Source: a virus (taxonomy: Duplodnaviria; Heunggongvirae; Uroviricota; Caudoviricetes). From it: DNA of 64,000 nt. Where the stretch lies: the IMG/VR virus record IMGVR_UViG_2693429768_000001, positions 12,099-76,098 of that record. One strand, 5' to 3'. This document shows, piece after piece, positions 21,369-22,081 of the stretch (the first letter of the stretch is position 1; each line of letters opens with the position of its first letter). Below the pieces are notes generated by a model. The model was not told the DNA's origin. It did not search any database and saw nothing but the letters and a program-made list of their open reading frames with translations. The translations under genes and the position numbers were made by a program.

Positions 21369-21950
21369 ACATAACAGGTAAGAGCATTCTCCCTTATGGG
21401 GCCTGGCTTAAATGCATCGAGTGCTCTTACCGTTGTGATGAAGTGCAGCTCTTTGAAGCAACCAGAAGATAAGCATCTGGCTTCACAACATAAACCGCAG
21501 GAACGACCAATAAACGGTAGTCCGTATGGAGAACACCCCGTTGAGGAAGAGGCCTGGCCGGAACCGTAACCGGCACTACAACGTTGAGAACACTGGCGTA
21601 ACGGGGTCATATCCCAATCTACGAATAAATGTTGCGTTGCAGCGTGACAACCAGTGTTCTCAACATTGTGGTGAATGCACAGGCTGATGTGCCGCAACTA
21701 CAGTAGTGCGCGCTTTGCGGGGCTTGCTACAACCCTGTGTCGGAGTTCAGCACCGACCATCACAGTTTGATTCTCTGGCATGAGCATAACGCTGAAATAA
21801 GTCCAGCCTGGTGCGGCCCGATCACCCGCCGTTAGCTCCACGAAACGGAGCACGTAACAGGTAAGAGCATTCTCCTGTAACGGGTTCATATCCCAATCTA
21901 CAGGTCCACCAAGAATGCTCTTTCCGTTGCGGTGAATGCGGCTAAGCGCA
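21369..21950 (+). repeat. Three diverged copies of a structured element: long perfect-stem hairpin plus conserved 3' tail; candidate ncRNA array
   Basis: Stems 21377-21386/21422-21431 (10 bp), 21583-21596/21651-21664 (14 bp), 21863-21873/21912-21922 (11 bp); shared loop motif gtaacggg(g/t)tcatatcccaatctac in copies 2 and 3; shared tail c.ttg.g.tgaa.gc. Confidence 0.5.
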
Positions 21951-22081
21951 CGCGGGGAAATGGTTATATCAGTCCATTCATTTCTCCTTGTTTCCCCGTC
22001 CACGGTGGATAACCAGCCAAAGGACACCGGGAGGCACCCGGCACCGCAGCTTTTTTATTCGTTAAATAATGGAGTGAGAGG

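Follow-up and report, generated by a model that had tools for sequence, protein, structure and literature searches.

A chain of conserved hairpin and tRNA-like RNA modules between dmt and ban in a P1-like phage-plasmid

What is encoded between dmt and ban in P1-like phage-plasmids, where diverged structured repeats follow a cluster of transfer RNA (tRNA) genes and the annotation of phage P1 lists two minus-strand genes, plp and upl? We analysed this repeat array (positions 21369–22060) within a window of 64,000 nucleotides (nt), a stretch of DNA that belongs to a P1-like phage-plasmid and is 94–98% identical over 20440–22320 to phage P1, P7, RCS47 and many E. coli plasmids. The original prediction for the array was a family of small structured RNAs made together with the tRNAs, each unit consisting of a long hairpin and a conserved tail. 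The structure, the strand and the existence of a family all stood, while the unit turned out to be a long hairpin (H) joined to a tRNA-like closed domain (D), not a hairpin with a tail. In the P1 annotation the equivalent stretch is the C1-repressed ban operon, with promoter and operator at the end of dmt, just upstream; from this annotation and the gene orientation we infer that the modules are transcribed as one RNA. We propose, with moderate confidence, that the array is a chain of three non-coding H–D modules on the plus strand of the C1-repressed ban transcript, with a fourth module 5′ of the tRNA genes, and that this transcript is processed to small RNAs (sRNAs).

All three hairpins expected after tRNA-Thr were found on the plus strand. 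H1 (21370–21437) begins 2 nt past tRNA-Thr and has the arms CAUAAC-A-GGUAAGAGCAUUC and GAGUGCUCUUACCGUUGUG around an apical insert of 29 nt; H2 (21574–21673) is a variant without a bulge, with the arms CACUACAACGUUGAGAACACUGG and CCAGUGUUCUCAACAUUGUGGUG, recovered as inverted repeat I1 (23 nt, 91%), and its 54-nt insert holds the T-arm-like motif GGGGUCAUAUCCC; H3 (21853–21931) has a U-U mismatch and a 38-nt insert carrying GGGUUCAUAUCCC. The folds of H1, H2 and H3 beat dinucleotide shuffles (z −4.4, −6.3 and −4.4, respectively), with 0 of 200 shuffles as good. Stems of 10, 14 and 11 base pairs (bp) had been expected; the hairpins are real, and their actual stems measure 19–23 bp, counting a bulged A, the U-U mismatch and G-U pairs. 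As anticipated, copies 2 and 3 share the loop motif GTAACGGG(G/T)TCATATCCCAATCTAC (21598–21622 and 21877–21901), and repeat-family analysis recovered the 5′ segment common to copies 1 and 3. The motif common to the P1 loops, GGG(G/U)UCAUAUCCC, is of a T-arm-like mini-hairpin type. Unit sequence comparison placed a small plus-strand hairpin ahead of each of the later copies: GCCGG-AACCGUAA-CCGGC (21557–21574) directly 5′ of H2, which is one among several alternative small hairpins preceding H in other phages, and GCUCC-ACGAAAC-GGAGC (21835–21851) 5′ of H3. The spacers between the hairpins folded no better than shuffles (z +0.3 and +1.2).

Run over the 64-kilobase window, a hairpin covariance model matched only in this region, scoring 46 bits at unit U1, 30 bits at U3 and 22.9 bits at U0, with a partial match at U2; these plus-strand scores (46, 30 and 22.9 bits) exceed those on the minus strand (16, 15 and 15). 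The match at U0 is a fourth copy, H0 (20838–20918, plus strand; fold z −5.4; inverted repeat I2), which the original prediction had missed. Since the H0–D0 unit (20838–21002) lies 5′ of the tRNA genes, the array stands on both sides of the tRNA cluster, although the count of three copies after the tRNAs is correct. Covariation across relatives was looked for and found in the H stem. In an alignment of 38 sequences, 93.8% of cells at the H pairs are paired, compared with 35–65% when the partner strand is slid, and 10 of the 19 pairs have changes on both sides, values that none of 500 shuffles reached; the H2 arms and those of the pJN2-26 hairpin Hb also differ by compensatory changes. G-U outnumbers A-C at these pairs by 50 to 5, which shows that H pairing is selected on the plus strand.

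Across phage families the arms of H are conserved in sequence. The apical insert is hypervariable: the 68 distinct loops fall into 45 unrelated families. These loops show an excess of T-arm-like mini-hairpins (7 of 68, compared with 0 in the reverse complement and 0.01 in shuffles). A tRNA inside the H loop was considered and rejected, none being present in 109 units. One unusually long insert (L045, 384–430) gave a sub-threshold match to Hammerhead_1 (28.7 bits against 34, E 0.003), which may be due to chance.

The tail that follows each hairpin is conserved in sequence as predicted, but instead of being free it makes up one side of a second, long-range helix. The tail GUUGYGGUGAAU is the 5′ strand of the helix, 9 bp long and acceptor-like, by which D is closed; its GUUGYGGUG pairs with CACCRCAAC located 58–218 nt downstream. 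A partner matching at 9 of 9 positions within 260 nt occurs in 71 of the 96 distinct units among the matches listed, against a shuffle mean of 5. The closing strands covary, GUUGCGGUG with CACCGCA, GUUGUGAUG with CAUCACAAC and, in phage lambda, GUUGUGCUG with CAGCACAAC, and the minimum-free-energy folds of D0–D3 are all multi-branched and closed by a terminal helix. The six bases that end the H 3′ arm also open the D closing helix, so only one of the two, the base of H or the D helix, can form at a time.

The four domains, all on the plus strand, differ in size and interior. D0 (20925–21002; z −3.2, 2 of 200 shuffles as good) is cloverleaf-like, closed by UUUCAGC/GCUGAAA (inverted repeat I17), and contains three hairpins including the T-arm-like ACGGGUAUAUCCCGU. 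D1 (21432–21489), supported by its fold and by relatives, is small; its 5′ strand overlaps the 3′ arm of H1, it is closed by GUUGUG..AAG/CUUCACAAC, and it encloses the conserved hairpin CCAGAAGAUAAGCAUCUGG (21462–21480). The D1 piece recurs in Sashavirus, P22-like and SSU5-like phages with covarying closing stems (GUUGUGGUG/CACCACAAC and GAUGCGAUG/CAUCGCAUC). D2 (21665–21766), identified by partner search, multi-branch fold and comparison with relatives, is tRNA-like, with the 9-bp closing helix AUUGUGGUG/CAUCACAGU, a D-arm-like hairpin GCAC-AGGCUGAU-GUGC (21677–21692) and a hairpin in T-arm position, GUCGG-AGUUCAGCA-CCGAC (21739–21757), an architecture that recurs in at least 27 distinct domains elsewhere. 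In the commonest D family, a D-arm-like GCGC-AGGCUGAU-GCGC is followed by a hypervariable centre of 30–170 nt and by a hairpin GCCGG-AGAUCAGCA-CCGGC that abuts the 3′ strand in the fashion of a T-arm; the D-like loop is complementary to the T-like loop over 6 nt, and one variant is doubly compensated. A perfect T-arm, GCCGGUUCGAUUCCGGC, is present in another D family. CCA stands at the end of the D helix in 36 of 66 domains, a control window giving 3 of 66. Neither the D domains nor the spacers were called as tRNAs by ARAGORN or the Rfam tRNA model RF00005, which reported only four known tRNAs. We also rejected the spacers at 21490–21556 and 21767–21834 as decayed tRNAs, which neither program supported; a spacer homologous to the one before H3 comes after a real tRNA-Gly in a Klebsiella lambdoid phage, marking this second spacer as a trailer and not a tRNA remnant.

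The last domain, D3 (21926–22050; z −3.2), links the array to a known RNA family. It is closed by GUUGCGGUG/CACCGCAGC, has a conserved inner hairpin CCGGGAGGCACCCGG (22027–22041) and aligns over 21928–22048 to positions 31–147 of the STnc100 model (RF02076) at 37.8 bits (E 5e-7 to 6e-6). The gathering score of 47 bits was not reached in the window (37.8), P7 (43.0) or D6 (39.6), and the E-values across these three (5e-7 to 2e-5) indicate a similarity that is true but distant. D3 has the STnc100 closing stem and its conserved 3′ inner hairpin CACCGGGAGGCACCCGGCACC, and its closing stem differs from that of phage 933W (CAUGGUG/CACCAUG) by three compensated pairs. An Rfam scan, proposed with the original prediction, thus gave this sub-threshold relative for D3 and no family for H, D1 or D2; even at a permissive threshold, over the window and 20 related loci, nothing was found for H, D1, D2 or the commonest D family, the other matches there being tRNAs, weak transfer-messenger RNA (tmRNA) alignments and chance miRNA-type matches on the long hairpins. 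Directly past the D3 closing helix stands a U-run (UUUUUUAUU, 22051–22059, plus strand), a possible 3′ end or Hfq-binding tail and a weak terminator candidate. A terminator formed by a hairpin and T-run had been suggested here, and the candidate (22027–22059) is weak: a scan for the strict intrinsic pattern, a GC-rich hairpin with a T-run within 0–2 nt, was negative, as 9 nt separate the short hairpin from the T-run and only the long-range D3 closing helix abuts it.

The minus strand behaves as non-coding DNA. The only open reading frames (ORFs) across the array, at 21356–21697 and 21698–22027, lie on this opposite strand. In an alignment of 16 P1-like sequences their variable sites are even by codon position (16/17/17 and 19/28/23), relatives differ by insertions or deletions (indels) of 1, 8 and 19 nt within the plp/upl frames, ORF lengths vary between genomes that are 98% identical, and a Pfam search of the minus-strand ORFs returned no match. 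The P1 plp gene has a TTG start and overlaps tRNA-Thr in antisense. Most plasmid records have no coding sequence under the match, in a gene table that is itself incomplete, and pieces of the array DNA found in unrelated temperate phages fall in unannotated DNA. The plp/upl stretch is non-coding, as had been suspected from the look of these ORFs, and carries conserved plus-strand RNA structure.

The repeats had been taken for a family of unknown function in P1-like genomes. They are conserved in those relatives, and their range is wider than P1, extending through temperate Enterobacterales phages to the late leader of lambda. A search of IMG/VR with a pattern made of the H 3′ arm and the tail found at least 120 stretches with at least 103 distinct units, and the H–D module is present in more than 100 viral contigs (IMG/VR) and at least 18 Enterobacterales species genomes. 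The full hairpin, with the same arms and an unrelated insert, occurs in Sashavirus in the leader of the structural operon, in a lambdoid phage of Klebsiella, downstream of tRNA-Gly in the interval from a Q-like gene to the holin gene, and in SSU5-like phage-plasmids, where it immediately follows tRNA-Asn and tRNA-Ser; a P22-like phage has only the D1-like piece, in the PL leader 5′ of N. H comes 1–5 nt past a tRNA 3′ end in P1-like and SSU5-like phages, tRNAs in H loci are on the same strand in 87 cases and on the opposite strand in 2, and in other phages the H unit is co-oriented with its flanking genes. In phage lambda (NC_001416), H occupies 44790–44860, about 10 nt past the tR′ terminator of 6S RNA, and the untranslated late leader holds a complete H–D module (44790–44944) ending in CCA. 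The element was not found in the Q-to-S regions of the E. coli K-12 prophages DLP12 and Qin, and K-12 transcriptomics therefore cannot help. A lambdoid nut site, which would show one boxB hairpin at nutL and nutR alike, was considered for the D1-like hairpin 5′ of N in Salmonella phage SPN9CC and rejected: the hairpin is missing at the nutR position of this phage, its cro–cII region has a P22-type boxB instead (GCUGACAAGGC), and the boxA-like GCUCUUU before the hairpin is not conserved in relatives.

How would such a chain work? We propose that the polycistronic transcript holds tRNAs, modules and mRNAs, and that enzymes that process tRNAs and double-stranded RNA (dsRNA) would cut it. RNase P would generate the 5′ end of the acceptor-like helix, its 3′ side would be trimmed back to the helix or to CCA, and RNase III, RNase E or both would cleave at H or next to it. 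These cuts would free the tRNAs together with stable D RNAs. The conserved ends of D would provide for processing and stability, and the variable interiors may serve as base-pairing regulators acting in trans, as reported for STnc100 and PasD; D3, the last domain, ends in a U-run and so resembles Hfq-dependent sRNAs. One set of six nucleotides can pair either at the base of H (CACAAC/GUUGUG) or in the D helix (GUUGUGGUG/CACCACAAC), so that H could control whether or when D folds and is processed. Several observations weigh against this proposal. The H arms are far more conserved in sequence than pairing needs, which suggests sequence-specific recognition by a protein or nucleic acid, and the hypervariable inserts could mean absent constraint instead of target-directed diversification. 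D1 and D2 alone fold no better than shuffles (z −0.7), their support being comparative only, and the three array domains D1–D3 lack the CCA that is common among relatives. Finally, a CRISPR interference screen found P1 plp and upl to be non-essential for plaque formation (PMC10695390).

An additional element precedes H0. A tag-like frame at 20718–20750 on the plus strand, GCA AAC GAU GAU CUG AUG AUG GUA GCG GCC UAA, encodes ANDDLMMVAA* and resembles the tag of E. coli tmRNA (SsrA), ANDENYALAA; it was recognised through peptide conservation and through the Rfam model tmRNA_permuted, which aligns to the tag region at a sub-threshold 24.1 bits. The frame follows a leader, GGUUUUCGUCA...GCGACUUUGCGG...UAGAAACUGACCAUUAAAGUAAAU (20660–20717, plus strand), which is conserved in an alignment of P1-like and lambdoid loci and has an in-frame UAG 8 codons 5′ of the tag and no start codon. 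Tags of SSU5-like and lambdoid phages (ANDNQYLAVA, ANEEMYLAVA, ANDEQFLAVA, ANDDVVLMAA and others) always have 10 codons, and each peptide is encoded by several nucleotide versions. Two covarying plus-strand hairpins lie 3′ of the tag, helix A (ACGGGG/CCCCGU, 20764–20787) and helix B (CCCCGU/ACGGGG, 20808–20837), and lambdoid versions of these tag-to-H hairpins have compensatory changes (GCAAGG/CCUUGU, GUGAGG/CCUCAU and GCCCGG/GGGCG). A scan anchored on the tag leader found at least 92 distinct loci, and H follows the tag in 75 of 92 distinct loci among the matches listed (82%), with a median start 115 nt past the tag. Conversely, a tag precedes only 9 of 94 H units and none of the three units of the array, so H–D is a general module and the tag an optional 5′ accessory. 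In a lambdoid contig the tag–H–D composite sits between a Q-like gene and the holin–lysozyme–Rz genes. About 60 nt downstream of the composite in a lambdoid contig (L046), we observed an int-alpA RNA motif (264–330, minus strand; RF02996, 43.7 bits, above threshold), and the 3′ part of lambda 6S RNA (GCAAUCCCGAAACAGUUCGCAGGUAAUAGUUAG) looks like a degenerate tag frame.

Which other readings could account for these features? The modules might act only in cis, as punctuation and stability elements in which H is an RNase III-type stem and D a structure recognised by RNase P or RNase E, with no trans-acting RNA; they would separate tRNAs from downstream mRNAs and protect the ends of cleavage products in long untranslated operon leaders. 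RNase III needs about two turns of dsRNA, and the H stems of 19–23 bp are of this size (about 20 bp or more). H also comes right after tRNA 3′ ends or terminators, in the leaders of long operons (lambda late, P1 ban, Sashavirus structural), is always sense-oriented, and lies in a non-essential region. Nevertheless, processing stems need neither near-invariant arms nor an attached tRNA-like domain with kissing loops and CCA, and D3 belongs to a family whose members reportedly act as sRNAs; we regard a purely cis-acting role as possible but unlikely. A different view would have the conserved arms work as DNA, as homology linkers or recognition sites for the exchange of cassettes (tRNA genes, sRNAs, morons), with the RNA structure incidental. 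The mosaicism of the locus speaks for it: breakpoints between P1-like sequences fall at arm edges and shared loop motifs (query positions 52, 206/207, 254, 321–324, 396–400, 484, 509, 541–548 and 587), unrelated phage groups share identical units, and nearly invariant arms enclose the unrelated inserts. Among P1-like contigs (L048 3586–3893; L064 ~2861–3068), some have hybrid units in which the H2 5′ arm continues through the shared loop motif into the H3 3′ arm, and others have H3 shifted to a place immediately after tRNA-Thr; both kinds are deletions that arose when repeats recombined with each other. A tRNA-Ser(UGA), which scores just under the Rfam tRNA-Sec threshold (43–46.6 against 47 bits), stands between two H–D modules in P7 (L007 1946–2032), D6 (L006 1896–1982), L008 (2307–2393) and L009 (2076–2162), its carriers being P7, D6, pTIC and pJN2-26, and the corresponding slot of the window is an 80-nt non-tRNA spacer. 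Breakpoints, hybrids and this slot together mean that the repeats also act, at least passively, as recombination linkers. Such recombination is expected at repeats anyway and is compatible with an RNA function, whereas the excess of G-U over A-C (50:5) and the compensatory changes are selection for pairing on one strand, and a DNA recombination site has no need of strict sense orientation. The arms, (G/A)CA(C/T)AAC and GTTG(T/C)G(G/A), also depart on inspection from the integron attC core consensus (RYYYAAC/GTTRRRY), and we rejected attC on that inspection of the arms, no integrase search having been made. A role as DNA with incidental RNA structure seems to us improbable.

Least plausible is the annotated state of affairs, in which the array encodes Plp, a putative lipoprotein, and Upl on the minus strand. 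P1 lists both genes, and stop-free minus-strand frames of 92–145 codons are kept in close relatives; against this stand the lack of a third-position excess of variable sites, the indels and fluctuating ORF lengths, the TTG start and antisense overlap with tRNA-Thr, the missing Pfam match, the absence of coding sequences from most plasmid records (given the incomplete gene table) and the recurrence of the DNA, unannotated, in unrelated phages, by which a protein-coding reading is essentially excluded. The tag-like frame raises yet another idea, that the modules are parts or paralogues of a non-canonical, tmRNA-like system of phages in which the tag is mRNA-like, H–D is the tRNA-like domain and the tag-less copies are duplicated or degenerate. 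Its start-less frame of 10 codons with an in-frame stop 8 codons 5′, conservation at the peptide level, likeness to ANDENYALAA, the covarying hairpins and the H that follow it, and the alignment of Rfam tmRNA models to it all fit, as do the acceptor-like helix of D, the T-arm in some D families and CCA in 55% of domains. Yet ARAGORN found no tmRNA in 139 records (1.1 megabases), the Rfam tmRNA models scored 14–26 bits against thresholds of 47–84, and the acceptor-like helices lack the G3-U70 alanine identity pair. The order, from tag to H to a complete tRNA-like domain, is unlike that of standard or permuted tmRNA, the tag is confined to 9 of 94 H units and to none in the array, and the D domains of the window have no CCA; we consider this origin of the modules doubtful. 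A bolder idea, which we offer only as speculation with little confidence, is that P1-like, SSU5-like and many lambdoid phages carry a tmRNA-like leader-RNA device for lytic growth, composed of a tag AN[DE][DEN]xx[LM][AMIV][AV]A*, two hairpins, H and D-CCA, which would hijack or modify ribosome rescue or tagging, with tag-less H–D units as paralogues re-used as sRNA scaffolds.

A strong hairpin with a T7 run (20631–20656, plus strand), annotated in P1 as the terminator of the 'dicF-like region' and called at 20630–20649 in our terminator scan, comes soon after the C1-controlled ban promoter (~170 nt), within the operon; it is context and not a repeat unit, and it could attenuate the whole tRNA/RNA/ban transcript. 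The tRNA genes between D0 and H1, tRNA-Asn(GUU), tRNA-Tyr(GUA) and tRNA-Thr(UGU) (21122–21368; ARAGORN and Rfam tRNA), are on the plus strand like the modules. Among them, tRNA-Tyr(GUA) (21202–21288, between tRNA-Asn and tRNA-Thr) is not in P1, P7 or D6 and is shared with vB_EcoM-Ro157c2YLVW and plasmid pTIC; tRNA-Tyr genes of phages have been connected with evasion of defences that cleave tRNA. After the array come a 78-amino-acid membrane ORF, a 275-amino-acid SPFH lipoprotein, tRNA-Ile2 (called as Met-CAT) and ban, the two proteins (22082–23126) standing where P1 has tciA–tciB–tciC. The junction to these non-P1 downstream genes coincides with the end of D3, at ~22048–22060.

Returning to the chain of H–D modules that we favour, P1 and lambda, among the best-studied of all phages, carry in their lytic-phase transcripts a conserved RNA module that their annotations either omit or record as doubtful proteins. 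The module is spread over temperate enteric phages, including the Shiga-toxin-type late regions that gather virulence genes, tRNAs and sRNAs. If the D domains are sRNA scaffolds, their hypervariable interiors would amount to a large store of regulators by which phages act on genes of the host or of rival phages, and H–D would explain how sRNAs are produced from long leaders; if the association with the tag reflects a tmRNA-like activity, it would represent a new phage route to interfere with ribosome rescue and proteolysis. The P1 genes plp and upl are due for re-annotation, and a new RNA family model could enter Rfam. The H–D family appears to be undescribed apart from its STnc100 branch, and a literature search for the arm sequences, the tag peptides, the ban-operon tRNAs or a P1 tmRNA returned nothing relevant.

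Several known systems share parts of this design. RNase III processing hairpins punctuate phage polycistronic transcripts in the T7 early region, the lambda N leader and sib; like H, they are homologous, irregular hairpins of ~20 bp between functional units of long phage transcripts, but H has a big hypervariable insert, overlaps a second helix and is conserved across unrelated phage families. The rtT RNA (RF00391), encoded by regular 178-bp tandem repeats downstream of E. coli tyrT, offers another case of repeated structured RNA units downstream of a tRNA gene, released by processing in rtT; the modules have no sequence or Rfam match to it and are mosaic, not regular tandem repeats. Stable RNAs of tRNA-like character are also known from phages, among them the 'species 1 and 2' RNAs in the T4 tRNA cluster and the RNase P-processed C4 antisense RNA of P1 and P7. 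They resemble our modules in co-transcription with tRNAs (for the modules, as deduced above), an acceptor-like helix, hairpins in D- and T-positions, CCA in many relatives and a function that is regulatory or without assignment, whereas D goes unrecognised by ARAGORN and by the Rfam models for tRNA and C4 and has a 9-bp helix, no anticodon arm, a hypervariable interior and the attached leader hairpin H. The phi80 M3 RNA, considered as an RNase P substrate of a lambdoid phage, was rejected as a further parallel, its record annotating an oop homologue, and it is therefore unrelated to the late leader. With tmRNA, the composite shares a start-less 10-codon tag ending in AA or VA, then hairpins, then a domain that has an acceptor-like helix and a T-arm-like hairpin, with CCA among relatives; it differs in having no recognisable tmRNA tRNA-like domain or G3-U70 pair, in domain order and in the tag-less array units.

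The closest relationship is that of D3 to STnc100. A 2026 preprint (bioRxiv 10.64898/2026.05.13.724894) describes STnc100 and PasD as prophage sRNAs that are related but differ in their seeds; it reports that every Pas sRNA has a terminator at its end, probably serving as the Hfq site, and that PasA, of a different family, is cut from a longer transcript beside the holin gene. The P1 copy is preceded by H and has its U-run right after the closing stem, whereas the 933W copy follows stxB, has no H and uses a separate terminator, and D1 and D2 do not match the family. Even so, the 5′ strand of D3 starts with GGUGAAU, which is common to all module tails, and both STnc100/PasD and the modules lie in untranslated parts of lytic-phase phage operons.

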